A DNA stretch of 64,000 nucleotides from a virus (Duplodnaviria; Heunggongvirae; Uroviricota; Caudoviricetes), in the IMG/VR virus record IMGVR_UViG_3300018411_000017; one strand, given 5' to 3'. The position numbers and the translations under genes are program-made. Shown here piece by piece: positions 2,702 to 52,191 of this stretch; position 1 is the stretch's first letter; every line of letters begins with the position of its first letter. The notes beneath the pieces are model-generated. The model had not been told where the DNA came from. It saw nothing but the letters and a program-made list of their open reading frames with translations, and ran no database searches.

Positions 2702-3013
2702 TTATTTATTATAATGATACCAGTCCAAGGATGCTTGTAACCAGAATTCGTGACCTTCAGGAGTGTTATCCCAGTTAAAACATCTTGTAAGAAATCCTGA
2801 TTTCATTCTTTCATCAAAAAACGAACTAAAATTATTTATTTTATTTGTTTTCTCTTTTGAAAAATTGTAAATATATTTATCTAAAAGATTATGATCGATT
2901 AAAAATTCTTTAAACGAAATTGGCATAAAATCTTCTAAACTATTTTTTCCTTTTATTTTCATATTAACAACATTTAGCCAACTGATACCATTGATAGTCA
3001 TTCTCAATTGCAC
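2702..3013 (-). CDS. family B small protein (W..T.EG..YW motif), divergent member
   Basis: 103 aa; C-terminal FNWDNTPEGHEFWLQ matches the family B motif. Confidence 0.5.
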   Translation of the reverse strand: MQLRMTINGISWLNVVNMKIKGKNSLEDFMPISFKEFLIDHNLLDKYIYNFSKEKTNKINNFSSFFDERMKSGFLTRCFNWDNTPEGHEFWLQASLDWYHYNK

Positions 3014-3209
3014 ACCAAAAGGTAAAGCCTTCTTTTGAGAGAGAAAAAGAAAAGGAATTTATTGATGTGATTTTATGTCTAACGTTACCTTTTTCAAATT
3101 TAATTACATTATCTATAAATATATCTAATATATCCCATCCCTTTAAGAATGCTAGCAAATCAGAGTCTATTCTAGATATAACTAATTCTTTATTTTTAAT
3201 TATTTTCAT
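2964..3209 (-). CDS. family B small protein
   Basis: 81 aa; LAFLKGWDILDIFIDN ... FSLSKEGFTFWCAI. Confidence 0.55.
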   Translation of the reverse strand: MKIIKNKELVISRIDSDLLAFLKGWDILDIFIDNVIKFEKGNVRHKITSINSFSFSLSKEGFTFWCAIENDYQWYQLAKCC

Positions 3210-3475
3210 CTTTTTTCAATCCAAATATTAAAGTCATCATATATTTCACTCCAATAAGCATTTCCTTCTTTTGATTGTGTCCAAATAAATCCTTGGCGTG
3301 GTGTATGTACCGATTTGTTTTTATACTCTTTAAAAGATGTATAATTAACAAGATTATCGATAAAAATATCCAAGATTCCTTTCCAATTTAAAAACAATAT
3401 AAGATTGTCATCTAATTTATTTAGGGCTTCTTTGTCTAATCTAACTATTTTCATTAGTGCATTTCCATTTACCAT
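3206..3475 (-). CDS. family B small protein
   Basis: 89 aa; internal MKIVRL is the probable start; LFLNWKGILDIFIDN ... WTQSKEGNAYWSEI. Confidence 0.55.
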   Translation of the reverse strand: MVNGNALMKIVRLDKEALNKLDDNLILFLNWKGILDIFIDNLVNYTSFKEYKNKSVHTPRQGFIWTQSKEGNAYWSEIYDDFNIWIEKR

Positions 3476-3698
3476 ATTCTAAATCAATCTGGTCCCAATA
3501 TCTATAACCTTCTCTTGTTTCACTCCAAGTAAAAGCCTCAATTGGCCTAGATATACTTTTGTGTTTTGCTACAGAAAACACAGTATCACTAATAAAATTA
3601 TATATAAATATATCTAGTAATCCTTTCTCTTTCAAAAAAAGTATCAAATGATCTGATAACTTAGATAAGGCTTCTCCGTTTTGTTTTTTAATTTTCAT
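3441..3698 (-). CDS. family B small protein
   Basis: 85 aa; LFLKEKGLLDIFIYN ... FTWSETREGYRYWDQI. Confidence 0.55.
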   Translation of the reverse strand: MKIKKQNGEALSKLSDHLILFLKEKGLLDIFIYNFISDTVFSVAKHKSISRPIEAFTWSETREGYRYWDQIDLEYGKWKCTNENS

Positions 3699-3927
3699 TT
3701 TCTAAAACTTTTAGCCATTTACTCAATATTGCACACCAAAAATCAAAGTCTTCTTCTCTCCATGAAAAAGCTGCTGCTAATAAAACTTGAGGTGATGTTG
3801 TTTCAACATATTCTCTAAGGAATTCTTCATTTTTTTGATCAAACCCACCTTCTTCAAGAAATTTATTTAAACAATCTGTTTCAAATAAAAACTCTATAAA
3901 ACGATCGTAGATTTTATTTTTATCCAT
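3688..3927 (-). CDS. family B small protein (divergent)
   Basis: 79 aa; FLFETDCLNKFLEE ... FSWREEDFDFWCAI. Confidence 0.45.
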   Translation of the reverse strand: MDKNKIYDRFIEFLFETDCLNKFLEEGGFDQKNEEFLREYVETTSPQVLLAAAFSWREEDFDFWCAILSKWLKVLENEN

Positions 3928-4183
3928 GCTTTTCTTTAAGTTTTTGAATTATATAATTATCAAAATCAATCTGTATTTTTCTCCAATAAGAAGGTCCTTC
4001 TGGAGTATCCCTGAAGACAATAGTGCCTGCTATAGAATAAAATTTCATTCTTTCACTATAGCCCATAGCCTCTATATTTTTCACAAATTTATCTAAGCAA
4101 TTATTTTTCTGTAAAAACTCTAATAATATTGGCGATATTCTATTTACTATGCTTTTGTTTAATTTAACTATTTTCATATTCAT
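3920..4183 (-). CDS. family B small protein
   Basis: 87 aa; EFLQKNNCLDKFVKN ... FRDTPEGPSYWRKI. Confidence 0.55.
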   Translation of the reverse strand: MNMKIVKLNKSIVNRISPILLEFLQKNNCLDKFVKNIEAMGYSERMKFYSIAGTIVFRDTPEGPSYWRKIQIDFDNYIIQKLKEKHG

Positions 4184-4427
4184 TCCAATAATCTACCAAT
4201 TTATCATGCAACTCTCCCCAATAAATACCACCTTCGACAGTTTCGTCCCAAGTAAAAGAAAATAATATAGAATCTTCAATTCTATATTTAGAAATTACAG
4301 ATAATGGATCTTTATGTTGACTATTAATATTATTAAGGAATTTATGCAATGCATCATGTTCTATTAAAAAAGAAACCAAATTTTCGTTTAAATCCTCTTT
4401 TCGCAGAGTTCTTTTCCCTATTTTCAT
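4164..4427 (-). CDS. family B small protein
   Basis: 87 aa; SFLIEHDALHKFLNN ... FTWDETVEGGIYWGEL. Confidence 0.55.
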   Translation of the reverse strand: MKIGKRTLRKEDLNENLVSFLIEHDALHKFLNNINSQHKDPLSVISKYRIEDSILFSFTWDETVEGGIYWGELHDKLVDYWNEYENS

Positions 4428-4429
4428 AA

Positions 4430-4675
4430 TTAAAATTCTTTTTCTATTTTTTCTTGCATTTCAGACCAATAATGAAAGCCTTCAGGAGTAATGCTCCATG
4501 CAAAAGCAGTCCATAATATTACTTTTGGTTTATATTCTTTTATTTTAGATATAGGATCTTCATGAGAGTTATTGAAATTGTCTATAAAACTGTACAAAGC
4601 TCCATTCTTTCTTAAAAAAGAAGCAAATATGCAATCTAAATCTGATTCAGTTATTTTTCTTTTAGTTATTTTCAT
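4430..4675 (-). CDS. family B small protein
   Basis: 81 aa; SFLRKNGALYSFIDN ... FAWSITPEGFHYWSEM. Confidence 0.55.
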   Translation of the reverse strand: MKITKRKITESDLDCIFASFLRKNGALYSFIDNFNNSHEDPISKIKEYKPKVILWTAFAWSITPEGFHYWSEMQEKIEKEF

Positions 4676-4998
4676 AATAAATAAATTTAGTACCCCAAAT
4701 TGGATTCAAACCAATGTTTTAACCTTGAAGAGTTACGCCCTAGATCACTAGACGATTGGGGCTTATTAATAGTAGCAAGTATAAAATACACATAGGCCAA
4801 GTTAAAAGCGAAGACAAAGACCAGCTTCTAAACTAAGGCAAAGACAAAGTATTTTTTGTTTATTTTCTTAGAAGCTGTCGGTTTTTTGTTTGCTCATATA
4901 GCGTATATATTTTCGTCGCAAAACGCGTCGATCACGGTTTTGTATTTCATACTTGCTCAAAGTATAATATTAAATCTAATTTGATTTTAATTATACAC

Positions 4999-5889
4999 CT
5001 ATTTTATTAATGAATTTAATTCATCAAACAACTTTTGGAAATCAGATGGTATAACAATCTTGAGTTCAAGAAGCTCTTTCTTTTGTTCTTCAATAAAAGC
5101 TTCAGCCTGTTTGGCATATGTAGCAATAACTCTGTCATATTCTTCTGATTGAGCAGCATATTCCCTTTTAGCTTTAAGATTATGATCATCCATGATCTGC
5201 TTAACCTTAAACTTTAAAGAATTAAGCTGCTTATTTGCCGTTCTATGAGCAGACTGTAATTGCATGAATGTTTCATTCACCTCATCGACATCTGCTGATG
5301 GGGAATAAGTGTAGACTAGAGCATCACTCCCAGATCCAACCAGTTTAATTGGTTCTTTTCTTTTCAGTTCTAATTTGCGCCTCGCTTCAGCAAATGATTT
5401 GCCAGGATGAATCCGATTGCCTATAGCCGCTGAGGTAGCTTCTAAGATAAGATATCTTATTCTTTCTTGTTGAGATAATAATGCAATAGCATCATCTTCT
5501 GTCATAAAATCAAGACTGTGCGAACTTCTAGGATCAACAATTTCAATGCCTTTAATTTTTAAGAATTTTGAAGTAGAAATTCCTTCTATATAATCCAATT
5601 CTTCTTCTTTAGCTTTGATAGCTTCACGTAAATATGCGATCAAAGCGTTGCATTCTGCAACCTTATTAATTGATAAAACAATATTTCCTAATTCATCAGT
5701 ATCATAACCTTTTTCGGTAAGTTTTGATACATCTGAGGAAATTAAGCCAACATTGCAATTAACAAATGTAATATTTTCAAGTAGTGCTCTACTCTCTTCC
5801 ATTACTTCTTTTGCTATATTTGCGATGTGATTTGCGGAAGTTGAGGTTATACCTTTTGTTCCAAAAAATATCTTATTTTTCTCTTTCAT
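4999..5889 (-). CDS. hypothetical protein
   Basis: 296-aa ORF with a coiled-coil-rich C-terminus; no motif recognised. Confidence 0.55.
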   Translation of the reverse strand: MKEKNKIFFGTKGITSTSANHIANIAKEVMEESRALLENITFVNCNVGLISSDVSKLTEKGYDTDELGNIVLSINKVAECNALIAYLREAIKAKEEELDYIEGISTSKFLKIKGIEIVDPRSSHSLDFMTEDDAIALLSQQERIRYLILEATSAAIGNRIHPGKSFAEARRKLELKRKEPIKLVGSGSDALVYTYSPSADVDEVNETFMQLQSAHRTANKQLNSLKFKVKQIMDDHNLKAKREYAAQSEEYDRVIATYAKQAEAFIEEQKKELLELKIVIPSDFQKLFDELNSLIK

Positions 5890-5960
5890 ATTTCTATAAA
5901 TAAAAAATAGAACACCTATATGTATAGATGCTCTATTTTAATATATTTATTTATTTATTC

Positions 5961-6758
5961 TTACTTTGTAATTCTTAGGAATTCAGGAACAACTCCATAT
6001 AACGGGGCAGACCCATTCCACTTGTCGATAAATTGCTTGTATAGAATTTCCTTTGTCAAACCTCGGCTTGCGATAATAGCTTGTTGGGTTTTAAGTTCTT
6101 CAAGCTCATTTCGTTTTCGCTGTTCAATAATCTGTTGTTCTAAAACTGTAACATTTGTATTAACCTCATTACGGTTGTCGATTTTAGCTTTTACTTTCTG
6201 ACTAAATTCTAACTGTGCTGAAAATGTTAACAATTCAAAGCCTCGTTTAGCAAACTCTTGCTTGACTATTGCTTCTAAACGTTTTTCAAATAATAAAGAA
6301 CCTTGGTTTGCCATAAGTGTATCTGTTGAATACTTTCGGCTTTCCTCTTTCATTAAATCATAAATTCTTGGTTCTAGTATATTATCTTCTACTGCGTCAA
6401 GAAAATCATCGCCTATGCCTATATGTTTATTATCGAATATAACATCAATAGGCTTATCCGGCATAACTTTATAAGAATAAACTGGACGAGCAGAAAACTC
6501 TGTATTATCAGCCGCTTTTAGAGTATCAGGATTATCAAACTCTCCACGTTGCTCGAACGCTGGAACTTGATATAGCTCAGTACCCCAAGCCATCACATTG
6601 ACTTTACCGGTTACAATACGAAAATCGCTTTTACCTGCCTTACCATAATTTGTCATTAAGACCCCATAATGGTTCAGTTCAACTCTTTCACAACTCTGGA
6701 AAATAAAAGTGAGCATTAGCAAACTAATTGCTAAAAAGCTCTTAAAGAAATTTTTCAT
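5961..6758 (-). CDS. putative lipoprotein with SPFH/band-7 (prohibitin-like) domain
   Basis: Signal peptide plus lipobox (..IFQSC); HYGVLMTNYGK..GTELYQVP resembles the SPFH N-terminal motif; C-terminal coiled coil (EQQIIEQRKRNELEELK). Confidence 0.45.
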   Translation of the reverse strand: MKNFFKSFLAISLLMLTFIFQSCERVELNHYGVLMTNYGKAGKSDFRIVTGKVNVMAWGTELYQVPAFEQRGEFDNPDTLKAADNTEFSARPVYSYKVMPDKPIDVIFDNKHIGIGDDFLDAVEDNILEPRIYDLMKEESRKYSTDTLMANQGSLLFEKRLEAIVKQEFAKRGFELLTFSAQLEFSQKVKAKIDNRNEVNTNVTVLEQQIIEQRKRNELEELKTQQAIIASRGLTKEILYKQFIDKWNGSAPLYGVVPEFLRITK

Positions 6759-6908
6759 AAATTTTTTGAATTAAAAAACTTGTAAATATTAATAATATAA
6801 AAAATAAAAATATAGCTAACCATGGGTCTATAAAATTAAAGAGCCATGCTATTATATTTATGTCTAAGATAATCGCAACAGCAATTATCATTATAAGCGC
6901 AAATTGTT

Positions 6909-7094
6909 TCATGTTGTTTTTGTTGTTTTAGAATCTTCCATAATAACAATCCACATTACTCCCCATAAGAAAAAAAACAATGAATCTCCAAGAGATAGTA
7001 AATTTAATTGTTCACTATCTACATATTCAGCAAATTTAAACCCACTTGCAAAAACGATTCCAATTAACAATATATAATTAAAAATTTTGCTCAT
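6909..7094 (-). CDS. small membrane protein
   Basis: 61 aa, two hydrophobic segments. Confidence 0.4.
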   Translation of the reverse strand: MSKIFNYILLIGIVFASGFKFAEYVDSEQLNLLSLGDSLFFFLWGVMWIVIMEDSKTTKTT

Positions 7095-7303
7095 TTGAAT
7101 ATGTTATTTATAAAATTGTAAAATAAATTTTTAATCTGGTTCATATATATAACTAATATTATTAATGATATACATGAGATTAGAAAAATAAAAGCGTTTT
7201 CTCCATGTGATTTTGTTACTATTACAAAACAAAGCAACAGCAATGCTATATGAATAACATTGACTATTATTGTAATTAATAGTTTTTTAAGGTTTTCTTT
7301 CAT
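7091..7303 (-). CDS. small membrane protein
   Basis: 70 aa, highly hydrophobic. Confidence 0.4.
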   Translation of the reverse strand: MKENLKKLLITIIVNVIHIALLLLCFVIVTKSHGENAFIFLISCISLIILVIYMNQIKNLFYNFINNIFK

Positions 7304-7312
7304 AATACTAAA

Positions 7313-7714
7313 TTATTTGATTTCTTCCATCCATTGTTGGATGGTAATTTCCATTGAGCTAGTTCTTTTTGCTAGTTTCGGGAAAATACCGCTATAAACA
7401 GATTCAACTTCTACTTCTTCTCCTTTTATAAATAATGCCAGATCTGTTTCATCTTTAACATAAGCCTCTTCAGATATATCAACGACGACTGTCCTCGTTA
7501 AAGGGTTTTCAGAACTAACGGTCATGGTCCTTTTAATCTTATTTTTTGTAATGATTTTAGATTTATTCGCTACAGGAATACTTGTAGCCGTTTCAAATAG
7601 AATATCTAAAGCAGATTCATGTTGTTCTTCCGGTAAAAATGAAATTAAATTTGCAACGGCAGAATTTTCAATTTTAGCAGTTTCTAATATTTTTTTAATT
7701 AGTTTTGAATTCAT
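7313..7714 (-). CDS. hypothetical protein
   Basis: 133-aa ORF. Confidence 0.5.
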   Translation of the reverse strand: MNSKLIKKILETAKIENSAVANLISFLPEEQHESALDILFETATSIPVANKSKIITKNKIKRTMTVSSENPLTRTVVVDISEEAYVKDETDLALFIKGEEVEVESVYSGIFPKLAKRTSSMEITIQQWMEEIK

Positions 7715-8067
7715 AATTCTTTATTTTTAATATAATTATTTATTTTTTCTTTCAGATTTTCAAGATCATTTGTATAATCTTTTAGATATACTATCTCAAT
7801 ACGAGATCCTTTAATTGAGCTTTCGCCTATTTGTTCGGTATAATATTTTATATTATTAATTCTTTTAGCAGACAATCTAAACCCGGCAACTGAGGAGACA
7901 ACTTGATCTTTTAATGATTTCTCCATACGCTCATGGGTTGAGTGAGCAAACACGCATCTCACATCTTTAAGTATTCTCATTAAAATCTCAACTTCTGTTC
8001 CGTTTTGTACGGCAATAACAACATCATGATCAAGATTAAAATGTTCAATTTGTTTTGTTATCTTCAT
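7711..8067 (-). CDS. hypothetical protein
   Basis: 118-aa ORF starting MKI. Confidence 0.5.
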   Translation of the reverse strand: MKITKQIEHFNLDHDVVIAVQNGTEVEILMRILKDVRCVFAHSTHERMEKSLKDQVVSSVAGFRLSAKRINNIKYYTEQIGESSIKGSRIEIVYLKDYTNDLENLKEKINNYIKNKEL

Positions 8068-8254
8068 TTGTTATTTCTTTAGCGTATTTCCATTTTTCAG
8101 TTGTTTCACTCCATGCGGCTTCTTCAAATGTTTCCGCTCCATGCCAAGCTTCATATCCACCCGTTATTTCCTGAATAACAACTCTTTTAAAGCCCTTATT
8201 TTCCGATGTTATTTCTTGATTAGAAACCATCATAATTTTTGGATATTCATTCAT
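8045..8254 (-). CDS. hypothetical protein
   Basis: 69-aa ORF. Confidence 0.4.
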   Translation of the reverse strand: MNEYPKIMMVSNQEITSENKGFKRVVIQEITGGYEAWHGAETFEEAAWSETTEKWKYAKEITNEDNKTN

Positions 8255-8282
8255 AATGTTTAAGTTTTTTAGTTAATAGTAG

Positions 8283-8351
8283 TTCCCCTTATAGGATTCA
8301 AACCTATGAAATAAACATTTGTTTATTGTTTTATCTCTAAACTAAAGAGGA
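8283..8351 (-). ncRNA. tRNA-like element with miniaturised anticodon arm
   Basis: Minus-strand fold: acceptor TCCTCTT/AAGGGGA, D-arm GTTT-AGAGATA-AAAC, T-arm ATAGG-TTTGAAT-CCTAT, but only a 4-bp/4-nt hairpin (AAAC-AAAT-GTTT) where the anticodon arm should be. Confidence 0.45.
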
Positions 8352-8647
8352 TTCCGATTTCTTTAAACATAAATTAGCATTCTATGCAAGCGCATTTTAC
8401 GTTTTGGATGAAATCAATCCAGCAAATTAAGTTAGATTAACCGTATTCTGGTCATGTAACTTATCTTAGGCTATTTGCAAGCCTATGTAGATAACCAAGT
8501 CTACCGCTTGCCTATTGATCAGATAGGTTTTTTCAAAGCACATGATAAGACAATATATAATCTTATAATCGGCTTTTAGAGATATGTCATCAACGTACGC
8601 GCTATTCATTTATTGTCCGTTTTTGTTTGCATATCTCTATTCTTTAT

Positions 8648-9061
8648 TTAAATTTCATATTTAAAATATACGAAATTATCACTTTGTTTAATTATCTTAA
8701 AGTCATTTTTTAAATGCCAATTAATAGATGGAGTATTTGATACTTCTGCTATACTATATAAATCCATTGGAAAATTCATTATAAAACTTTTAAATAACAT
8801 TGTCGCCAACCCTATCCGTTTTATATTAGAACTCAAGTCACATAGCATATATGAATTTGGTTTTAACCAATCTAAATAATCGTCCAATTCTGGTTCTTCA
8901 AATTTTATAGTATAAATTAATTTAACTTCAAATTTGCTTCGTGGTGCGTGAATACCTAGATTAAGATGGCTTTTAATTGCTGAATAACATTTAAAAGTTT
9001 CATCATTTATATCAAAACAAAAATCAAATGTTTCATTACTGTTTTTATCAAAGCATTTCAT
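8648..9061 (-). CDS. hypothetical protein (weak GNAT-like RxxGxA motif)
   Basis: 137 aa; KRIGLATMLF resembles GNAT motif A, but this is weak. Confidence 0.4.
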   Translation of the reverse strand: MKCFDKNSNETFDFCFDINDETFKCYSAIKSHLNLGIHAPRSKFEVKLIYTIKFEEPELDDYLDWLKPNSYMLCDLSSNIKRIGLATMLFKSFIMNFPMDLYSIAEVSNTPSINWHLKNDFKIIKQSDNFVYFKYEI

Positions 9062-9065
9062 GATA

Positions 9066-9485
9066 TTATGGTTTTACAAATAAAACTCCATGTTTTGCAT
9101 TGTCTCTAAATCTAACCAATCTAACAAATCCCCTAAGTATTACCAAGCAAGGAATTTCTCTTTTTTGTTTTTTTGATTTAGACCAAAAAAAAGCGGATTG
9201 ACCTACTCCGTTAGTGATTGATTCAAAACAATATCCAGATAACGGAAGCTTTAGGCATTTATTTTCATCATTTAAATCTATTAAATTATTTGCAAAATAA
9301 CAGTATTCATTTTTAATAACATATGGGGATTTGCTTAATAATTCAAGTTCTGATTCAGTTGGCAATCTTTTAATTCCTGTATTCTCCATGAGCATAGCAT
9401 CCTTATAAAAATATAAATCTTTTCCAACATCTTTATAGAAATCAATGCCAGCTATATTTATTATATAACAATATCCTATTTTCAT
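9066..9485 (-). CDS. family C: FISUMP-like domain protein (no signal peptide)
   Basis: GIKRLPTESELELL ; LKLPLSGYCF ; AFFWSKS ; C-terminal VRLVRF. Confidence 0.55.
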   Translation of the reverse strand: MKIGYCYIINIAGIDFYKDVGKDLYFYKDAMLMENTGIKRLPTESELELLSKSPYVIKNEYCYFANNLIDLNDENKCLKLPLSGYCFESITNGVGQSAFFWSKSKKQKREIPCLVILRGFVRLVRFRDNAKHGVLFVKP

Positions 9486-9901
9486 AACTTATTCATTAAT
9501 AGAAAAGACAATTCAACGTCATAAGCTGCTGCCTGTACTCTTAATTCACGTTTATTTGAAAACGTAAAACATTTATCTCCATCCCCAAATCTATAAAATC
9601 CAGTATCATCGTGAACAATTGAGCTGGCTAACCATCTAAACCCCGTTGGAGGTAGTATTAATCTTTGGCTTGGTATATCAAGATTTTCTAAAGATTCAGC
9701 TATAAGTAAATGATTCTCGCTTATTTTGTGAGGTAATTTCAACAAAGCATTAAAAGCTTCTTCTGTTAATAATTGCATATTATGAGACTTTGCCATCTCT
9801 AAAGTTTCTTCGTAAGAAGATAATCTAAATGCTGTTTTATGGATAAAGAATCCTCCTAATTTAATTGAATTTGGATTTGGATTTTTAGCTTCTATTTTCA
9901 T
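9482..9901 (-). CDS. family C: FISUMP-like domain protein (divergent)
   Basis: QLLTEEAFNALLKL ; LILPPTGFRW. Confidence 0.45.
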   Translation of the reverse strand: MKIEAKNPNPNSIKLGGFFIHKTAFRLSSYEETLEMAKSHNMQLLTEEAFNALLKLPHKISENHLLIAESLENLDIPSQRLILPPTGFRWLASSIVHDDTGFYRFGDGDKCFTFSNKRELRVQAAAYDVELSFLLMNKL

Positions 9902-10332
9902 GGCGTTTTTAATAATATAGGTTGTCCATAAGATGAATCCGAATAAAATATTCTAATTCTATTATCTTTATTAAAACATAAATATGGCTGATTCTCCGTT
10001 GGATTTGGATTAGTGTTTTGTAACCAATAATAGCCGCCTATGTTTTTTCCAATAAATCGTTTTTGATTCAAATGATTATTATAATATCCCAATCTAGGGA
10101 ATTCAATCCTTCTATTTTCATCATCTAACCAAATACCTTGTTCTGCTATATAAAGACTAGTTGAGTCGTGTTTCCTTGGAAGAGTTAAAAGCAGTTCCAT
10201 TTCATGTTTACTAATCAATACTTTTCCAACAGACTCGGCGTACTCAATAGCTTGCTTATAGTTGAAATAGCCATTAATGGGTTTTTGATCAAACTTAATC
10301 CCTTTTATCTCAAATTGTTTTCTTATTTTCAT
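9898..10332 (-). CDS. family C: FISUMP-like domain protein
   Basis: EFPRLGYYNNH ; GGYYWLQN. Confidence 0.5.
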   Translation of the reverse strand: MKIRKQFEIKGIKFDQKPINGYFNYKQAIEYAESVGKVLISKHEMELLLTLPRKHDSTSLYIAEQGIWLDDENRRIEFPRLGYYNNHLNQKRFIGKNIGGYYWLQNTNPNPTENQPYLCFNKDNRIRIFYSDSSYGQPILLKTP

Positions 10333-10346
10333 AATTATTGTTGGTT

Positions 10347-10793
10347 TTATAAATCTGAAACAAAACGAACTGTAAATTTATATTCGCGAAAATACCTATC
10401 TACACCAGGGATTGAATCGCTATCAAAATATAGATGAGTTGCATTGTCTTCTGATAAAGAAGAATCAGCCCAATATATTCCAATGTCATAAACGCCATAA
10501 TTAGGCGTAATACTTTTGGGAGGGCAATACCCGCCAGAAGGTAAAAACAATGAATAGTTTGTTTTTAAATCTCTAACATCATTTGCATACCAAATTCCAC
10601 GATTATCTTTATCATATAAATAATGTAATTTATTAAGATTGCGAAATTCTTCTGGAGTTGGCAGTCTCTTATTTCTTATATAAGCTTGATGCATCGCATC
10701 TTTATGAGTGAAATGAGCTATATCTCCATCTTTAAAATTAGATATATCCCATTTCAATCCATTTAATATAACATAATCACCTCCTATCTTCAT
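10347..10793 (-). CDS. family C: FISUMP-like domain protein
   Basis: ILNGLKWDISNF ; KRLPTPEEFRNL ; SLFLPSGGY ; IYWADSS ; C-terminal FTVRFVSDL. Confidence 0.6.
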   Translation of the reverse strand: MKIGGDYVILNGLKWDISNFKDGDIAHFTHKDAMHQAYIRNKRLPTPEEFRNLNKLHYLYDKDNRGIWYANDVRDLKTNYSLFLPSGGYCPPKSITPNYGVYDIGIYWADSSLSEDNATHLYFDSDSIPGVDRYFREYKFTVRFVSDL

Positions 10794-11053
10794 AATCTAT
10801 AATAATTGTTTTCACTTTTATAAAAGAAGAATGTAGGATTCCCTTTAATTTGACATATCTGCAACCATTCCGTTTGGAATAAAGTGTAAGAATAAGCCAC
10901 AGACACATATGTATTGTCAGTTATATCATATAAAAAAACTTCTTTACTAGGAATATTTACCATTAGAAACATTACCTCATGTTTTTCTATGGTTTCCTGT
11001 TTTACGCAACTAGTTAATAAAACAAGTAATAATAATATGACTAAATGTTTCAT
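10790..11053 (-). CDS. small lipoprotein
   Basis: 87 aa; signal peptide with lipobox LLTSC. Confidence 0.45.
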   Translation of the reverse strand: MKHLVILLLLVLLTSCVKQETIEKHEVMFLMVNIPSKEVFLYDITDNTYVSVAYSYTLFQTEWLQICQIKGNPTFFFYKSENNYYRL

Positions 11054-11065
11054 GTTTTTAATATT

Positions 11066-11482
11066 TTAATAAATTGATTTTATTATAAAATTACGATCGT
11101 TACCTTTTGGTATAAGTTTATTTAACTTTTCTTTATCTTCTATATCACAAACGCTTGTTTGGCTTCTTTTAAGATTGTTAATAGATGAATTAATTTCTAA
11201 AACTATTCTGCTTTCATTATCATCATATACAGATCTATATATATTTAATAGCAAATAATCCGAATTGGAAATAGAAAAAGGTTTATTTACTATTTCTAAC
11301 AACGCAACTTTATAAGTTCCATATGGAATATCTAATCTATGAAAATATTGGAATAAACAACCTGCGCTATATGGATCATGAGCAATTCCGAATTCAGGTT
11401 TGCAAAACTTAATTCTTAACATTTTAAAATGGTCATAATATATATAAGCTTTTATGCAATTATTTGAATTTATTATTTTCAT
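11066..11482 (-). CDS. hypothetical protein, family G (1 of 2)
   Basis: 138 aa; KAYIYYDHFKMLRIKFCKPE resembles the N-terminus of the neighbouring ORF. Confidence 0.5.
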   Translation of the reverse strand: MKIINSNNCIKAYIYYDHFKMLRIKFCKPEFGIAHDPYSAGCLFQYFHRLDIPYGTYKVALLEIVNKPFSISNSDYLLLNIYRSVYDDNESRIVLEINSSINNLKRSQTSVCDIEDKEKLNKLIPKGNDRNFIIKSIY

Positions 11483-11880
11483 AAAACAATTTTAAATCTA
11501 TAATATTTTCCTGTCTTAAATCCGAATTCATCGTATATATCAAAATAAGTAGTCCAATTAGAAAATAGAGAAAAAGCATTTCTGGCTTGAAATTTTATCC
11601 GATTAAGAGATGCACTAAAAATAGATATCATAAATTCCGTTTCTATAAGAAATGTCAAATCGTCCATTTCAATTAACAATACCTCTCTACATTCTCCTGG
11701 CAAAATTTGAGGGAAAAAGTAATTATCAATACTCTGATATGGACCGTTATAACAATGGTATACTATTTGACCTTCGCCAACCGATCTACATTCCGGTTTA
11801 TAATAAGATATACTTAGATTATTATTTGAATTTCTATATAAATACATCTTTAACCCATTACCTTTTGATGATATTTTCAT
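11479..11880 (-). CDS. hypothetical protein, family G (2 of 2)
   Basis: 133 aa; KMYLYRNSNNNLSISYYKPE. Confidence 0.5.
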   Translation of the reverse strand: MKISSKGNGLKMYLYRNSNNNLSISYYKPECRSVGEGQIVYHCYNGPYQSIDNYFFPQILPGECREVLLIEMDDLTFLIETEFMISIFSASLNRIKFQARNAFSLFSNWTTYFDIYDEFGFKTGKYYRFKIVL

Positions 11881-12317
11881 AACTTTATTAATTTTAAAGA
11901 CAATTGATATTCCATATTAAAGGATGGAGCAGAATCGGCATGAATAAATCCGTTTGATAACATAATAAAGCAACATTTTCCTTCTTCTTTTTCTTTTGCC
12001 CAATAAAATCCACTTCCTAATGCTATTGGAGGCCTATTTTGTTGCCTATAACCTTGTATTGTGTTAAACCTCAAACATTTGTTAGGATCAGATAAATATT
12101 CTTTTTTTGGAGATAGATGACACCATCCATCTTCATATATTCTTTGCAGCTTAATAAGACCTGAAAAATCCTCCTTATCTGGTATTCTGGCATCAAATCT
12201 TTCGGCTAGAAATAAAGCTTCTTCATAAAGCATATGAGGACATCCTTTTAATGTAATGTCTTCTTTAATCCAAAAAAAACCATTTATTTCAATTGTCTCA
12301 ACTTTTTTTATTTTCAT
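11877..12317 (-). CDS. family C: FISUMP-like domain protein
   Basis: INGFFWIKEDI ; ARIPDKEDFSGL ; GFYWAKE ; C-terminal LSLKLIKL. Confidence 0.55.
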   Translation of the reverse strand: MKIKKVETIEINGFFWIKEDITLKGCPHMLYEEALFLAERFDARIPDKEDFSGLIKLQRIYEDGWCHLSPKKEYLSDPNKCLRFNTIQGYRQQNRPPIALGSGFYWAKEKEEGKCCFIMLSNGFIHADSAPSFNMEYQLSLKLIKL

Positions 12318-12757
12318 AATTTAATTAGCTTTAAACTAAATAAAAAATCCTGTACTCGAATATTTGATGGTGATTGGACTTTGGATTCATTGAAAAATAA
12401 ATAAGATCCATATTCATTTTCTATATCATCCAAATCGCACCAATAACAGGCTGTTGTTGCATTACTATCATCCGATTTTACATATATCCATCCATTAAAT
12501 TTAAATCTTAAAACATTGAATCCTTTTTTGAGTTCCTCATTTGTTTCAGCAAAAATCCATTCGCTTGTTTCTGGAATAAATTTATGAGATAATTTTAATA
12601 GTTTTTTATAATCGTCTGAATTCGGAATTCTTGCTTTATACTTTTTAGCCAAATGTAAAGCTTCTATATTAGAAACATTAACTCGCCCTTCAAATGATAT
12701 GTCTTCTTTAATCCACGTAATACCATTTAAGGTTATACAACTTTGTCCTATTTTCAT
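12314..12757 (-). CDS. family C: FISUMP-like domain protein
   Basis: LNGITWIKEDI ; ARIPNSDDYKKL ; CYWCD ; C-terminal FSLKLIKL. Confidence 0.55.
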   Translation of the reverse strand: MKIGQSCITLNGITWIKEDISFEGRVNVSNIEALHLAKKYKARIPNSDDYKKLLKLSHKFIPETSEWIFAETNEELKKGFNVLRFKFNGWIYVKSDDSNATTACYWCDLDDIENEYGSYLFFNESKVQSPSNIRVQDFLFSLKLIKL

Positions 12758-15560: not shown

Positions 15561-15675
15561 AATATTTTGTTTTAGATAAAATAAATAAAGAGTGATACAT
15601 TGTGTACCACTCTTTTCACATATTAGTCTTCACAGATTTGTATGCGACTAAACTTATAAAATATGAAAAATATAG

Positions 15676-15747
15676 TACCGCGTAGAGGAGTCAAACCTCT
15701 TTTCTGCATTTGAGAGATGCAAGTCCTAATCGGTAGACGAACGCGGC
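15676..15747 (-). tRNA. tRNA, anticodon CTC (Glu-type), non-canonical D/T loops
   Basis: Manual fold on minus strand: acceptor GCCGCGT/ACGCGGT (6 WC pairs plus G-U); D-stem GTCT/GGAC with D-loop ACCGATTA (no GG); anticodon stem TGCAT/ATGCA with loop CTCTCAA; 4-nt variable loop; T-arm AGAGG-TTTGACT-CCTCT (U in place of C56). Confidence 0.55.
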
Positions 15748-19529: not shown

Positions 19530-19555
19530 AAGTGTTTATTTTATAAATTATTAAG

Positions 19556-19627
19556 TACTCAAACCAGGAGTTGAACCTGGGCTTCATGGATATAAGCCGT
19601 GCGTGCTAACCGTTACACCATTTGAGC
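19556..19627 (-). tRNA. tRNA, anticodon TAT (Ile-type, AUA decoder)
   Basis: Manual fold on minus strand: acceptor GCTCAAA/TTTGAGT; D-arm GTGT-AACGGTTA-GCAC; anticodon stem CACGG/CCATG (one C-A mismatch) with loop CTTATAT (U33, A37); 4-nt variable loop; T-arm CCAGG-TTCAACT-CCTGG. Confidence 0.55.
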
Positions 19628-24234: not shown

Positions 24235-24696
24235 TTATTTCTTTAAAAGACATCCAGCCCATTTATCGTAATAATTATCAAGTTTAAAATCAATTGGATT
24301 TTCATTCTCAATCTCTTTCAAATAAAAAGTATCTTCCATTGAAATCCTTGTTAAATAATAAGGGATCTGATGCTTATCACAATAATCATAAATGAGCTTT
24401 TTCAACCTCTTAAACCTTTTATTAAAAGGAGAATTAGCTTTGAATAAGCCATAATCACTTGGAATAGATCCAAAATAACAATAGTTTAACTTACAAACCA
24501 ATGAGTTAGTATCACATCCGTTAGAAGTTAAATGAGAACAACGAGCGCAACATAATCCTGCTCTGTTTTTAAAACAACCATTGCACGTAACAGAATCATC
24601 TACTTTTCTTATATCACATGGATTATACAACTCGTTATATAAATCCAAAATTCTACAAGCTTGCAAATACTTGCGTTTCTTCTTTTCTATATCCAT
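24235..24696 (-). CDS. Cys-rich protein (putative zinc-binding)
   Basis: 153 aa; CNGCF..CCARCSH..C..C..C cluster. Confidence 0.45.
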   Translation of the reverse strand: MDIEKKKRKYLQACRILDLYNELYNPCDIRKVDDSVTCNGCFKNRAGLCCARCSHLTSNGCDTNSLVCKLNYCYFGSIPSDYGLFKANSPFNKRFKRLKKLIYDYCDKHQIPYYLTRISMEDTFYLKEIENENPIDFKLDNYYDKWAGCLLKK

Positions 24697-24715
24697 ATCT
24701 TATAAGTTTAAATTT

Positions 24716-24779
24716 GTCCGCTTGCAAGAATCGAACTTGCATTCCTTAAACTAAGGTTCTACCATTGAAATAAAGCGGG
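24716..24779 (-). ncRNA. tRNA-like element with miniaturised anticodon arm
   Basis: Minus strand: acceptor CCCGCTT/AAGCGGA (C1-A72 mismatch), D-arm TTTC-AATGGTA-GAA(C), T-arm GCAAG-TTCGATT-CTTGC; the anticodon position is only CCTTA-GTT-TAAGG, giving 64 nt total. Confidence 0.45.
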
Positions 24780-24957
24780 TGCCACTCCATCACTTAATTT
24801 AATAAATAATATATTAAAACATAAGCGATTATAGGAGTAAAAGGACTAAATCACCAGTTAATGCAATATTTATAATCTGGATAAGAGCTCGTCACCAATC
24901 TATAAATCTATGCGCGATTGTTTAGATTTAATCCTTATATTGTAATACTGTAATACA

Positions 24958-27967: not shown

Positions 27968-28073
27968 CATTTTTTTTACAAATTTAATTCAGTATAAAAT
28001 AGCAGTCAAAAGATTCTTCTTTTGATGGGTATACTTCTGTATATTTGTATATTGTATACTTTAGTATCATGGA

Positions 28074-28142
28074 TGATATTTCGGTGTGCATAACTGATAT
28101 GTCATGTATCACAATTGATATTTCATGTATCATAACTGATAT
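28074..28142. repeat. iteron-like array: TGATAT hexamer four times at exact 21-bp spacing within TCATGTATCAnAAnTGATAT units
   Basis: TGATAT at 28074, 28095, 28116 and 28137; lies directly upstream of the wHTH gene 28240..28959. Confidence 0.75.
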
Positions 28143-28203
28143 GTTGTATTATATTTTATGTTTTATTAACATAATATATGAACGGTATATGAACAATAAT
28201 TAT

Positions 28204-28211
28204 TATATTTG
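28204..28211 (+). promoter_or_regulatory. Bacteroidetes-type -7 promoter element (TATATTTG)
   Basis: TAnnTTTG motif about 30 bp upstream of the ATG at 28240. Confidence 0.45.
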
Positions 28212-28239
28212 TATATTATTAATTCAAATATAATTTATT

Positions 28240-28959
28240 ATGGACGAACAAGAAGTAAAACAAAAGCCGAAATTCTTTTTACAACCAAATAAAAGCGCGC
28301 TATTACAATCTGGACTGCAATACCGTGACGTATTAACCTACGGAACGTTATTGTCTTTTTGCAATAAAAATTTAGAATGTTATCCCTCATTAAGATCTTT
28401 AGCTGAAAGATCTAAACTATCGGTTGGATTTCTATCTTCTTCAGTTGAAAGGTTGAAAAAAGCCAATTGGATAACTATTGAAAAGAAGTTAAACGGAAAA
28501 AGATCTTTTAATTATTATAAATGCAAACCGTTTGATGATTTTAAGATGGTTCCAATAGAAATCTTTGAGTCTGATTTACAAGCTGAAGATTTAGCAATAT
28601 TATTATGCATAAGGCAATTTTATTATGACGAAACGTTGATAACAGATATTAATATTGTAGAAATGTCTGATATACTTGGAGTATCTTATCCTACATTCTA
28701 TAGAAGATATGATATTCTTAAGAAGAAAGGATATATAACTATCAAAGTAAAAAATAATACATCTTTATCTAAATTAGAAGATAAAGACTTTGAGTGGAGG
28801 GTTAACATTGAGAAGAAGCTTAATGATACATATGATATGACTAAGAGAAATTCCGAAGAGATAGAGATGCTTAAAAATTTATTATATAAAACCATTAAAG
28901 CTGATAAGAAAGGTTCTAAGGAAGAATACTTTAAGTCACTGAAAAATAAGTCTGAATAA
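28240..28959 (+). CDS. DNA-binding protein with two wHTH-like domains (putative replication initiator or regulator)
   Basis: 239 aa; the two wHTH-like segments are SLRSLAERSKLSVGFLSSSVERLKKANWI and MSDILGVSYPTFYRRYDILKKKGYI; N-terminus is related to the N-terminus of the HNH protein at 32694; iterons lie upstream. Confidence 0.5.
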   Translation: MDEQEVKQKPKFFLQPNKSALLQSGLQYRDVLTYGTLLSFCNKNLECYPSLRSLAERSKLSVGFLSSSVERLKKANWITIEKKLNGKRSFNYYKCKPFDDFKMVPIEIFESDLQAEDLAILLCIRQFYYDETLITDINIVEMSDILGVSYPTFYRRYDILKKKGYITIKVKNNTSLSKLEDKDFEWRVNIEKKLNDTYDMTKRNSEEIEMLKNLLYKTIKADKKGSKEEYFKSLKNKSE

Positions 28960-32693: not shown

Positions 32694-33638
32694 ATGGGTA
32701 TTATAAAAAACAAACGGTTTAGTAATTTATTTATGTTATCGGCTTTAAGTTATTTTAAAGAAGATGATGGGTTCTGTTATTTTAGCAAAAAAGGCTTAAT
32801 AGAGACTTTTTGTTATAGTAAAAAAGATATTGTTTCAAGTAATTTAAAACATTTACAGAATATTGGTTTAATAGAAAATCATACAGTTAATGGATATTAT
32901 AACAAAATAAAGATACTTGATGATTCTATAGTTTGCTATGATTTTATGTTAAATAAAGATCTAACAATATATCAAAGGGGGTTTTTATATGCAATAAAAG
33001 ATCTAGATGTTCCATATGGCAAAAATAAATATCCTATTAAATATATATCGAGAAATCTGTCTACGGAAATTAAGCATACTGAATCTTATTTAAGTAGAAT
33101 AAGAAAAATTATAAATATTGAAGATTCTTTATTAAACAAAAAAATAGCTCATGGTATCATAAAGACAGATGCAGGTAATTTAGTAAAAAACGAATGCGGA
33201 TATAGGCTTTCATTTAAAGAATTAAAAGTTTGTAAATACTGCGGAGAGACTAATCAAGAGTCATTTTTTTATTTAACAAAAAATGTATGTAATAAATGCA
33301 TTGGATCTTATTCTATTGCGAGAGATGAATCTTATGCTGATTTATTGTATAAGAAATCAAAGTCAAGTCTTAAAAATAAGACATTTAATTACACGTTGAC
33401 CAGAGAATACATAATTGAGGTGTTAAAATCTCAAAATGGGAGATGTGCTTATTCTGGTATGGAGTTTAGTTTGCATGATAAAAGGTCCGCTCCAACTATC
33501 GATCGTATAGATTCGAGTAAGGGTTATGAGATTGGTAATATCGCAATTGTTAGATTAGATGTAAATATAATGAAGTCGAATTTAAGTTTTAGTGATTTTA
33601 AAATTTTAATAGATAACTTATTCCACAATCTATCATAA
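32694..33638 (+). CDS. HNH endonuclease with N-terminal wHTH domain (free-standing homing-endonuclease-like)
   Basis: C-terminal NGRCAYSGMEF...PTIDRIDSSKGYEIGNIAIV..VNIMKSN is an HNH motif; N-terminal FCYFSKKGLIETFCYSKKDIVSSNLKHLQNIGLI is wHTH-like and related to the 28240 protein. Confidence 0.65.
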   Translation: MGIIKNKRFSNLFMLSALSYFKEDDGFCYFSKKGLIETFCYSKKDIVSSNLKHLQNIGLIENHTVNGYYNKIKILDDSIVCYDFMLNKDLTIYQRGFLYAIKDLDVPYGKNKYPIKYISRNLSTEIKHTESYLSRIRKIINIEDSLLNKKIAHGIIKTDAGNLVKNECGYRLSFKELKVCKYCGETNQESFFYLTKNVCNKCIGSYSIARDESYADLLYKKSKSSLKNKTFNYTLTREYIIEVLKSQNGRCAYSGMEFSLHDKRSAPTIDRIDSSKGYEIGNIAIVRLDVNIMKSNLSFSDFKILIDNLFHNLS

Positions 33639-48263: not shown

Positions 48264-49853
48264 ATGTATATGATTAATGAAAATGTATTATTTGGTTTAA
48301 ATGCCAAAAAAGAGATTAAGATTGGTATTGATATTGTATCAGATGCCGTTAAAAGCACTTTAGGGCCTCAAGGTAAGAACGTTATTATAGATAAATATAA
48401 TGGGTCTCCCCATATCACTAAAGACGGTGTAACGGTCGCTAAAGAGATTATATTAAAAGAAAAGTACCAATCTATGGGAGCTAGACTTATACAGGATGTA
48501 GCTGATAAAACCTGTCAAGAAGTCGGAGACGCTACAACTACATCAGTTGTTTTAGCTCAAGCTATTATAAAAGAGGGGTTGAATGTTTTGCAGAATGGAT
48601 CTGTTAATCCAACTGATCTAAGAAAAGGGATAGAAAAAGCGTCTCAAATAGTAACCGATTTTATATCTAAATCGTCTATCAGTTTAGATGATGATATTAA
48701 AATGGTAAAAGACGTAGCCACTATTTCTGCTAATAATGATGAATATCTTGGTGATATTATTAGCAATGCTATTTCAATGGTTGGTAAATATGGAGCAGTT
48801 AGAGTAGAGTCTTCTAATAATAATGAGACTTATTTAAAAACTGTTGAAGGTTTCAATATTAAAGAGCGAGGATATTTATCTCCTTATTTTATAACAAATG
48901 ACGCTACTCAGGAATGCATCCTAGAAGGAGTTGTTATTTATATCACTGACGATAAAATAGAAAAGTCTATTGATGCTATTTCTATATTAAACAACTTCGC
49001 TGCATTAATGAAAAACAACAAGAATATTAAATCATTATTAGTTATTGCTGAAGATGTAACTGGAGAAGCGTTTTCTACATTTGTCATTAACAAAGTACAG
49101 GGTGATCTTAACTTATGTGTTATAAAAGGTCCCGAATTTGGACAGAATAGGAAAGACTCCATGGAAGATATCGCTATTCTTACCAATGGAGGCGTTGATA
49201 GTATTATAAAGAAAGAAGGCAAATTTGGTTATGCTGAAAAGGTTATTGTCGGTAAGGATTCGACAATTGTATATTGTAAAAACCAAAACGATAGAGTTTT
49301 GCAACGGATTAATATTCTTAAAAGTTTAATTTCCGCTTCAAAGAATGAGTTTGATAGCAATCTATTAAAGGAAAGATTATCTCGTTTCTCTGATGGAGTG
49401 GCTACTATATATGTTGGGGCTAAAACGGAGATAGAGCTTAAAGAAAAAATGGATAGAATTGATGATGCCTTGTGTGCTACTCGTGCAGCATTAGAGGATG
49501 GAGTCGTTCCTGGCGGAGGCGTTGTGTTCTTAAAAGCTAAAGTGGAACTGTTAAAGAATAAGACTTTATTCTCTGATAACGAAAAAGCCGGATGGAATGT
49601 TATAAATGAAGCTTTACAAGCTCCTATTAGTCAACTTCTAATTAATGCTGATTTACCGGCTACTGAGATTGTAGAGGAAATACTTTCAAAAAGAACGCTT
49701 AATTATGGGTATAATGCCAAGAGTGGCAGATATGGAAATTTAATAAAGTTTGGAGTAATTGATCCTGCTAAGTCATTGAAGGTTTCATTCCAAAATGCAG
49801 TATCTATTTCTACTTTATTTTTAACTACCGAATGCGCTATAAGCTGTGTTTAA
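48264..49853 (+). CDS. groL: chaperonin GroEL (Cpn60) homolog
   Basis: 529 aa; AVKSTLGPQGKNVIIDKYNGSPHITKDGVTVAKEI closely parallels the GroEL N-terminus; GGG..VVPGGG-type C-terminal region. Confidence 0.9.
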   Translation: MYMINENVLFGLNAKKEIKIGIDIVSDAVKSTLGPQGKNVIIDKYNGSPHITKDGVTVAKEIILKEKYQSMGARLIQDVADKTCQEVGDATTTSVVLAQAIIKEGLNVLQNGSVNPTDLRKGIEKASQIVTDFISKSSISLDDDIKMVKDVATISANNDEYLGDIISNAISMVGKYGAVRVESSNNNETYLKTVEGFNIKERGYLSPYFITNDATQECILEGVVIYITDDKIEKSIDAISILNNFAALMKNNKNIKSLLVIAEDVTGEAFSTFVINKVQGDLNLCVIKGPEFGQNRKDSMEDIAILTNGGVDSIIKKEGKFGYAEKVIVGKDSTIVYCKNQNDRVLQRINILKSLISASKNEFDSNLLKERLSRFSDGVATIYVGAKTEIELKEKMDRIDDALCATRAALEDGVVPGGGVVFLKAKVELLKNKTLFSDNEKAGWNVINEALQAPISQLLINADLPATEIVEEILSKRTLNYGYNAKSGRYGNLIKFGVIDPAKSLKVSFQNAVSISTLFLTTECAISCV

Positions 49854-52128: not shown

Positions 52129-52169
52129 CATTTTCTCCACCTGTTTGTTTTTTTTTATAATATTTTTTG

Positions 52170-52177
52170 TATATTTG
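52170..52177 (+). promoter_or_regulatory. Bacteroidetes-type -7 promoter element (TATATTTG) for the homing endonuclease
   Basis: 15 bp upstream of the ATG at 52192. Confidence 0.4.
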
Positions 52178-52191
52178 CATCTTAATATTAA

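Follow-up and report, generated by a model that had tools for sequence, protein, structure and literature searches.

Two conserved and one polymorphic tRNA-like element with abnormal anticodon arms in a large phage genome: possible processing signals in early transcripts

Introduction

The 64,000-nt stretch of DNA analysed here (the window) is the IMG/VR record IMGVR_UViG_3300018411_000017, from a large phage of the Caudoviricetes with about 30% GC, and it carries on its minus strand three intergenic elements, at 8283..8351 (E8283), 24716..24779 (E24716) and 4691..4762 (E4691), which combine the acceptor stem, the D arm and the T arm of a tRNA with an abnormal anticodon arm. It is very unlikely that any of these tRNA-shaped elements decodes. 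E8283 and E24716 are conserved among strains of the phage, and E4691 is the window allele of a polymorphic gene derived from a tRNA-Glu(UUC). The structural observation and the conservation are solid, and a broader viral class of such elements is indicated; the function that is tentatively favoured below, excision from early transcripts in the manner of a tRNA, is proposed by analogy with known systems.

The role of phage tRNA genes is debated, codon supply and counter-defence being the two positions. Annotation pipelines drop tRNA-like calls that are “undetermined” or below threshold, and some of these are conserved genes that have lost only the decoding part.

Structure and detection of the elements

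E8283 (69 nt, 28% GC) folds with the acceptor UCCUCUU/AAGGGGA, the D arm GUUU-AGAGAUA-AAAC, a variable loop of 3 nt and the T arm AUAGG-UUUGAAU-CCUAU, followed by a discriminator A and then C. Its anticodon hairpin, AUAAA-CAAAUG-UUUAU, has 5 bp and a 6-nt loop, or, drawn otherwise, 7 bp closed by the tetraloop AAAU; in no pairing register does a 7-nt loop on 5 bp form. In E24716 (64 nt), for which the cloverleaf is the minimum-energy fold, the acceptor is CCCGCUU/AAGCGGA with a C1-A72 mismatch, the D arm UUUC-AAUGGUA-GAAC and the T arm GCAAG-UUCGAUU-CUUGC; its miniature anticodon hairpin has 4–5 bp and a GUU triloop, and the nearest approach to a 7-nt loop is a 3-bp stem with the loop UAGUUUA, which bears A33. 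E4691 has an anticodon arm of 5 bp with the 6-nt loop CUUCAA, one U short of the UCUUCAA allele found in other strains. The tertiary framework (8-14, 15-48, 18-55, 19-56 and 54-58) and the three arms are those of a tRNA, the exceptions being the C1-A72 mismatch and a 3-bp D stem in E24716: U8-A14, G53-C61 and U54-A58 can be read from the sequences of all three, and the 15:48 pair is G:C, G:C and A:U. None of the three has the anticodon arm of a tRNA, with its 5-bp stem, 7-nt loop, U33 and 3-nt anticodon, and elements with tRNA homology which yet lack such a loop should not be filed as tRNAs.

This agrees for the most part with the initial annotation, which had been made from the letters and which listed three minus-strand intergenic elements (the third of them from 4692, where 4691 is correct) with intact acceptor, D arm and T arm, T-loops TTTGAAT (8283), TTCGATT (24716) and TTTGAAT (4691), the C1-A72 mismatch of E24716 and the acceptor GCCCCAA/TTGGGGT of E4691; its statement that the elements cannot decode is supported in that decoding is very unlikely, with no anticodon arm of 5 bp and 7 nt in the window alleles. 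The hairpin of 4–5 bp with a 3–4 nt loop that it described does not fit the 6-nt loop of E4691.

All three elements score above the gathering score (29 bits) of the Rfam tRNA model RF00005, E8283 with 43.8 bits (E 2.5e-6, permissive filters), E4691 with 44.4 bits and E24716 with 34.9 bits when 24650-24850 is searched alone; E4691, which had been regarded as the weakest candidate, thus has the best score of the three. E24716 is lost to the speed filters in a 30-kb Rfam search. The canonical tRNA-Glu(CUC) at 15675-15747 was likewise missing from the Rfam cmscan output of the 30-kb search even at E<=10, so filter losses hit real tRNAs here too. With ARAGORN, which had been suggested as a check, the answer was divided: at default settings only Glu-CUC 15675-15747 and Ile-UAU 19555-19627 were called and none of the three focal elements, and with -ps95 the segments 4690-4762 and 8282-8351 were called as tRNA-??? 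with 2-base “anticodons”, i.e., 6-nt loops. Assembly error as the source of the 6-nt loops was ruled out, both intergenic regions being 100% identical in 5–6 independent assemblies. A body-only covariance model (acceptor, D and T; filters off) gave no additional tRNA-like element in the window, and window-wide Rfam scans for transfer-messenger RNA, YrlA and other curated tRNA-like RNAs gave nothing above noise besides tRNA.

Conservation among strains

Strains were collected through homologues of the 296-aa product of the open reading frame (ORF) at 4999-5889, which are 86–99% identical in strains and 37–43% identical in distant relatives; the resulting sample is shallow, covering one species with a divergence of at most about 12%. 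Only two of the 69 sites of E8283 differ among 14 strain sequences: the discriminator, which is A in nine and G in five, and a base of the apical loop, where one strain has AAAC for AAAU. The proportion of variable columns is higher in the adjacent 69-aa ORF (21/207, 10%; Fisher p = 0.04 against E8283), in the next two ORFs (158/732, 22%; p = 2e-5) and in the 45 nt upstream (8/45, 18%; p = 0.008). The stretch of 40 nt upstream of E8283 likewise shows fair conservation. E24716 was compared with strain L207, whose region is 88.4% identical over 852 nt: the element differs there at one of 64 nt, a G to U change in the triloop, and the chance of at most one change in 64 nt at 11.6% divergence is about 0.004 (binomial). 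Neither element, therefore, changes as a pseudogene in neutral decay would, E8283 with 2/69 sites against 10–22% of the neighbouring ones and E24716 with 1/64 against 11.6%.

Because variation is confined to the hairpin tip, plus the discriminator in E8283, amid more variable flanks, the two elements are evidently under purifying selection at all other positions. The apical loop and the discriminator are the sites that are dispensable to a non-decoding, uncharged RNA and least changeable in a decoding, charged tRNA. The initial annotation had named conservation as a check on the folds, and it is seen for E8283 (2/69 in 14 sequences) and for E24716 (1/64) but not for the polymorphic E4691.

Homologues of the neighbouring 69-aa and 153-aa proteins were not found beyond this phage species, so that no distant orthologue of E8283 or E24716 with covariation could be obtained by synteny. 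The 80 loci retrieved with homologues of the Band_7/SPFH protein of the window include none that is syntenic, megablast of 4000-9000 against deposited phages gave no nucleotide match, and the sole return of a pattern scan of JGI metagenomes was an unrelated tRNA-Arg.

The tRNA-type genes of the window

The window contains six tRNA-type genes in all, and in four the anticodon arm is aberrant. The fourth aberrant gene, E13585 (13585..13687, minus strand, 103 nt; RF00005 44.4 bits), has normal acceptor, D and T arms, and about 27 nt separate the strands of its anticodon stem; the insert (UUGUCAA) is the complement of the gene's long variable region (UUGACAA) and is paired with it in the minimum-energy fold, and ARAGORN calls the gene only if a 20-nt “intron” is assumed. 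The canonical members are tRNA-Glu(CUC) (E15675; 15675..15747, minus strand), called by ARAGORN at default and scoring 60 bits with the body model, in whose building set the sequence was nevertheless included, and tRNA-Ile(UAU) (E19555; 19555..19627, minus strand), with 60.5 bits for RF00005 and an ARAGORN call. A “tRNA-Ile” proposed by ARAGORN at 8460-8553 was rejected, having a poor D arm and no counterpart in strain L206, and being unsupported by Rfam and by the body-only model R1.

Over these six genes the 18-19/55-56 interaction covaries, 19:56 being A:U or G:C: a D-loop GA goes with a T-loop UUU in E4691, E8283 and E15675, and a D-loop GG with a T-loop UUC in E13585, E19555 and E24716, the T-loops continuing as UUUGA in the first group and as UUCGA or UUCAA in the second. 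The canonical tRNA-Glu(CUC) thus has the U56/A19 combination, as well as a trailing A-C-U, in common with focal elements; A-C-U trails the five best of the tRNA-type genes, and CCA is encoded by none. In a set of 13 tRNA-type sequences 97% of the acceptor, D and T cells are paired, with both-side changes in 12 of 16 pairs, a test that is partly circular given that the added sequences had been selected for pairing.

The early ORFs and all six genes share a strand; each gene is alone in an intergenic spacer, within a minus-strand block of tightly packed small ORFs that extends from position 1 to about 27,000. Five of the six end 15–28 nt upstream of the next start codon, the spacer being A/U-rich, and a terminator scan found no terminator-like hairpin between the elements and the next ORF; one such hairpin lies downstream of tRNA-Glu(CUC), at 15615-15587. 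Scans for sigma-70 promoters and for terminators gave hits at background level. Canonical Bacteroidota promoters (TTG...TAnnTTTG) are found mainly at the divergent region near 28 kb, on both sides of the divergent point, and not at the elements, and the motif TTGCATARAAT upstream of E8283 is not enriched.

The polymorphic locus at 4691-4762

Having been presented as a miniaturised element, E4691 keeps its tRNA-like character and loses that of a fixed miniature: it represents one of the alleles of a highly polymorphic tRNA-Glu(UUC) gene into which an HNH cassette also inserts. As a tRNA, the UCUUCAA allele reaches 51.9 bits. At least eight alleles exist, with UUC, UUU and UUA as anticodons among those with 7-nt loops. 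The loops UCUUUAA, UCUUCAA, UCUUAAA, CUUUAA and CAUUUAA occur where the neighbouring 296-aa protein is identical, and UAUUUAA occurs in other strains. All four bases occur at position 69, with loss of the 4:69 pair; U or A stands at position 72 and G or A at position 1, and the D-loop is variable too. The T arm, the variable loop and positions 2-7 are unchanged in 15 alleles. On contigs with an identical neighbouring protein the nucleotide diversity of the element is 0.054 as against 0.028–0.030 in the flanking non-coding DNA, and overall it is 0.057 as against about 0.06 in the flanks. With a diversity that matches or exceeds that of the flanks and with mismatches at 4:69 and 1:72, E4691 behaves as a pseudogene in neutral decay would. 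Its recurrent changes at the same stem positions suggest selection or a mutational hotspot and not drift, and evasion of the target recognition of an endonuclease is an attractive candidate cause of their clustering. Among the alleles of L219-L228 alone, position 69 takes all four bases and position 72 is U or A next to an identical 296-aa protein.

In two strains (L203, at 2984-3870, and L226) an 809-bp insert replaces the loop inside the anticodon arm, and both tRNA halves are intact. The insert contains an ORF for a 235-aa HNH endonuclease (PF01844) behind its own Bacteroidota-type promoter, TTG-N20-TATATTTG. A group I intron was considered and rejected, because only about 110 nt are non-coding and no Rfam intron is matched at E<=5 in L203; judged by its content, the insert is a free-standing homing-endonuclease cassette with the anticodon loop of E4691 as its insertion site. 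The HNH mRNA of this allele is naturally embedded in a tRNA scaffold.

Mutagenesis by a diversity-generating retroelement was also rejected as the source of the hypervariability, there being no second (template) copy of E4691 in the window. No reverse transcriptase was matched among 28 ORFs scanned, mostly of >=150 aa, several ORFs of that size lying outside the scan.

A more distant relative, L201, carries elsewhere in its genome, at 9397-9470, a tRNA-Glu(UUC) that shares the D arm and the unusual C33. C33 replaces the near-universal U33 in the tRNA-Glu(UUC) of this phage group (L206, L208, L227 and L201), in two lineages with only about 43% protein identity, and it may be a nuclease-evasion change. 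E4691 can thus be described as a one-base-deletion allele of the phage tRNA-Glu(UUC) gene that is probably decaying, or being diversified, in this species. The locus offers a population snapshot of a phage tRNA gene being dismantled at its anticodon loop, beside a homing endonuclease that inserts there.

Truncated tRNA-like sequences in other viruses

Pattern scans of IMG/VR, three of which were informative, returned more than 20 additional viral tRNA-like sequences with an intact body and a truncated or absent anticodon arm, the reference being the 22–24 nt that separate the D stem from the T stem in canonical class I tRNAs. The scan with the D-loop/T-loop pattern of E24716, restricted to short spacing, gave 16 distinct sequences in about nine families, with 8–19 nt between D stem and T stem. 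In each, the acceptor has 7 bp (at least 6/7 pairs), the T stem 5 bp (at least 4/5 pairs), and a D stem is present. Among them, a family with ACGG-UUUUU-CCGU occurs on 11 contigs, a family with a 5-bp stem and a tetraloop shows compensatory changes (CAUCC/GGGUG versus UACCC/GGGUA) when L260 is compared with L250, and other forms have a 5-bp stem with a UGA triloop or, in one case, no arm at all. The scan with the D arm/T-loop pattern of E8283 allowed an unbiased gap of 5–30 nt, and 7 of its 20 distinct sequences are shortened (7, 8, 9, 14, 15, 20 and 20 nt). One of these, L051, resembles E8283 minus its anticodon arm, with compensatory 1:72 and 51:63 changes, and is an apparent homologue without the arm.

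When the E8283-type pattern was run on one genome per species of 185,579 bacterial and archaeal species, it returned seven canonical tRNAs and four chance matches, and no truncated form with an intact acceptor. Truncated-arm tRNA-like sequences thus look recurrent and virus-associated, on the small numbers and narrow patterns used. In other phages some stand within tRNA clusters and most are solitary, and several unrelated tRNA genes of phages have, according to ARAGORN, loops of 6 or 8 nt. A full-text search of the literature found no description of phage tRNA-like sequences with truncated anticodon arms, which is not proof that none exists.

Two unrelated phage groups share a further feature: in L233 (about 4810-4920) and L260 (about 5270-5330; positions are element-strand coordinates, L233 being the reverse complement of its locus) a truncated tRNA-like sequence is followed after 35–60 nt by the common motif GCCGTACA(C/T)CCT(A/T)TAA(-/A)AGCGTAGCC. 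In L233 the motif runs into another odd tRNA-like sequence, which has a T arm and an acceptor and no recognisable anticodon arm.

Possible function and alternative explanations

The part of a tRNA that is recognised by RNase P, RNase Z and the CCA-adding enzyme is the part conserved here, and the part lost here is the one required for decoding and by many synthetases. On our reading the elements descend from phage tRNA genes and no longer have a usable anticodon arm, selection having kept the remaining body in 8283-8351 and 24716-24779. On the analogy of known systems we favour, with some hesitation and without calling it probable, the view that these tRNA-derived, non-decoding elements are excised from early transcripts as tRNAs are, giving a small CCA-tailed, uncharged RNA and setting the ends of the adjoining messages. 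Transcription, cleavage by RNase P and RNase Z and the effects on neighbouring mRNAs are inferred. The elements would be transcribed together with the leftward early genes, and the transcript segments would fold into the L-shape; the host RNase P would then cleave at the 5′ boundary, RNase Z or some other activity for 3′ processing would cleave after the discriminator, a CCA tail would probably be added by the host CCA-adding enzyme, and a small stable tRNA-like RNA would be released. The same cuts would make the 3′ end of the upstream message and leave the downstream ORF with a short A/U-rich 5′ leader of 15–28 nt. Such punctuation, which the initial annotation had raised among several roles, appears the most economical explanation because the acceptor/T/D body is preserved and the elements stand 15–28 nt upstream of the next ORF with no terminator between. 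The anticodon arm is, as far as the comparisons go, dispensable, given that alleles of E4691 alter the anticodon, the HNH cassette sits inside the arm, and other viral bodies keep only 7–20 nt. E4691 is a separate case within this explanation, as a hypervariable or decaying tRNA-Glu(UUC) allele.

Several observations weigh against the processing explanation. Transcription and cleavage are assumed in it; E8283 is conserved but has no covariation of its own in the strain sample; and its D arm, variable loop and anticodon-stem sequence are strictly conserved though processing needs the acceptor and T arms only, which suggests an extra partner or a trans-acting role. The syntenic intergenic region of the relative L201 has no tRNA-like element, and the syntenic gene is still expressed there. 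The truncated tRNA-like sequences of other phages are usually away from ORF starts. Finally, a TTG-N15/16-TAnnnTT-like motif lies 12–13 nt upstream of E8283 and of E4691, and if these motifs were promoters, which is a weak reading of them, the two elements would head transcripts instead of punctuating them.

Since the conservation exceeds processing needs and the examples in other phages are not near ORFs, a trans-acting mimic is a serious rival. The elements would then yield stable, excised, non-decoding RNAs that titrate a host protein binding the tRNA body (a defence nuclease, a modification enzyme or a sensor) and leave translation undisturbed. The conservation of the whole L-shape, including D arm, variable loop and tertiary pairs, speaks for this explanation; the class seems virus-specific in a limited test (7 of 20 viral sequences truncated versus 0 of 7 real cellular tRNAs), and most such elements in other phages are solitary and distant from ORF starts. 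Phage tRNAs are, moreover, known to counter defences by anticodon nucleases, PARIS and retron effectors (PMC10264068, PMC11464382, PMC11555353). Those counter-defence tRNAs are, however, functional decoders with 7-nt loops that substitute for cleaved host tRNAs, a decoy for an anticodon nuclease would require the anticodon loop, which is exactly the missing part, and no candidate partner gene was found among the window ORFs scanned; this rival is judged unlikely. A wider form of the idea, that phages widely encode a distinct and selected class of “headless” tRNA mimics with E8283 and E24716 as members, acting in trans as sponges for defence nucleases that bind the tRNA body, for sensors or for modification enzymes, or serving as non-ribosomal substrates, is possible but on the whole improbable. 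As processing signals the elements would be the counterpart, in a bacterial virus, of the tRNA punctuation of organelles, and a “tRNA scaffold” of natural origin; as trans-acting RNAs they would form a new class of viral non-coding RNA.

Quite unlikely as a general account, yet well matched to E4691, is the possibility that the elements are non-functional relics, tRNA genes inactivated by deletions in the anticodon loop that may have been selected as resistance to a homing endonuclease and that persist through recency. E4691 has its eight or more alleles, anticodon changes, 6-nt loops, 4:69 and 1:72 mismatches and HNH insertion, and a diversity that equals or exceeds that of the flanks; the phage has more homing endonucleases, one of the HNH type at 32694-33638 and one of the LAGLIDADG type at 52192-53052; and 6- or 8-nt loops are reported by ARAGORN from several unrelated phage tRNA genes. 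E8283 and E24716 are, on the contrary, the most conserved stretches locally, the apical loop and the discriminator being their only changing parts; even E4691 keeps its T arm, its variable loop and positions 2-7 invariant in 15 alleles; and truncated forms elsewhere retain perfect 7-bp acceptors and 5-bp T stems with compensatory changes. It is highly improbable that the elements are still charged by an anticodon-independent synthetase, as non-ribosomal aminoacyl donors or as unusual decoders (frameshifting, doublet or quadruplet). Acceptor stems and discriminators are intact, the 6-nt loops could open to 8 nt, and ARAGORN guesses Glu/SeC and Phe/Ile, but the discriminator of E8283 is A or G, the triloop of E24716 changes from GUU to UUU and the anticodon of E4691 varies; G3:U70 is absent, none of the three focal elements has a long variable arm, glutamyl-tRNA synthetase reads the anticodon, and no aminoacyl-transferase gene was found among the ORFs scanned. 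The slightest chance is given to a conserved sequence that acts as DNA, as a site for a homing endonuclease, for recombination or integration, or for a binding protein: the HNH cassette does insert at the anticodon arm of E4691 and the 40 nt upstream of E8283 are fairly conserved too, but the conservation tracks the tRNA fold, including tertiary-pair covariation that DNA would not need. The integration-site remnant of the initial annotation has no backing either, both acceptor strands being present, unlike in attP-type 3′ tRNA fragments, and no integrase being matched among the 28 ORFs scanned.

Relation to known systems

In their working the elements would be most like t-elements or mascRNA, if the processing explanation holds. 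The t-elements of plant mitochondria are cleaved by RNase P and RNase Z, which defines mRNA ends (Forner et al., 2007, PMC1920247), and they are CCA-tailed and not aminoacylated (bioRxiv 10.1101/2024.09.09.612099). Like the phage elements they are tRNA-derived non-canonical cloverleaves that keep the acceptor and a T arm of the GGTTCRANYCC type and stand beside protein-coding genes. They differ in belonging to an organelle and not to a bacteriophage, in that the defect of the phage elements is a truncated anticodon arm only, with D arm and tertiary pairs fully intact, and in that cleavage is known for t-elements and the phage elements are described from sequence. MascRNA and the MEN-beta tRNA-like RNA resemble the phage elements as cloverleaf mimics of about 60 nt in which the acceptor and the T arm are good and the anticodon stem-loop is small and little conserved. 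RNase P and RNase Z excise mascRNA, which receives a CCA tail and stays uncharged (bioRxiv 10.1101/2024.09.09.612099). It differs in being eukaryotic and nuclear, in its degenerate D region, and in setting the 3′ end of one long vertebrate non-coding transcript.

The defence-evading phage tRNAs (PMC10264068, PMC11464382, PMC11555353) are also phage-encoded and vary mainly in the anticodon loop, and the E4691 lineage and its relative in L201 have the unusual C33; they decode with 7-nt loops, however, and E8283 and E24716 are unable to form such a loop. Among tRNA pseudogenes and “Undet” tRNAs with 6- or 8-nt loops, E4691 fits well, with its recent one-base deletion at a polymorphic locus, whereas E8283 and E24716 are better conserved than the sequence flanking them, and their arms are far shorter than a one-base indel yields. 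The vtRNAs of murid gammaherpesvirus 68 are RNA polymerase III transcripts of a eukaryotic virus that are linked to microRNA precursors; they too are virus-encoded tRNA-like RNAs, and they differ in their structural defects.

The phage and its genome

The nearest deposited relatives of the phage are Bacteroides phages DAC and SJC, with a protein identity of only about 42%, and the same phage was also found on a JGI contig of 109 kb and in numerous assemblies from ENA and Logan. The window includes genes for GroEL (48264-49853) and the portal protein (54664-56919) and a terminase fragment (53236-54444). Three matches to the canonical Bacteroidota promoter (TTG-N-TAnnTTTG), in both orientations, lie at 27979-28251, where the leftward small-ORF block meets rightward genes, and this segment is probably an early divergent promoter region. 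Within the leftward block, about nine tandem ORFs of 133–148 aa occupy 8648-12757 (minus strand); several are clearly paralogous, and two that were tested in Pfam gave no match.

Mobile genes are found at several places. The LAGLIDADG endonuclease-like ORF at 52192-53052 (plus strand) lies directly upstream of an ORF that matches only the C-terminal half of a large terminase (profile positions 341-731), and in this region (51235-54444) the terminase gene may have been split by a mobile element. The Band_7/SPFH protein encoded at 5961-6758 (minus strand) is 66–70% identical to proteins encoded on over 300 IMG/VR contigs which otherwise have no gene in common with this phage, and its gene appears to be a horizontally mobile accessory gene. 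On the IMG/VR contigs with a Band_7 homologue (L127-L185; e.g., L127 at 4779-4855) there is a widespread tRNA gene for which ARAGORN gives the 4-base anticodon “gggt”, i.e., an 8-nt loop. A 38%-identical homologue of the 296-aa ORF is part of a GC-rich element (L197, 2824-4026 and neighbours) that also encodes an RtcB RNA ligase, SIR2, a MoxR ATPase and a Ser/Thr kinase and adjoins a tRNA-Leu and an excisionase-like helix-turn-helix gene.

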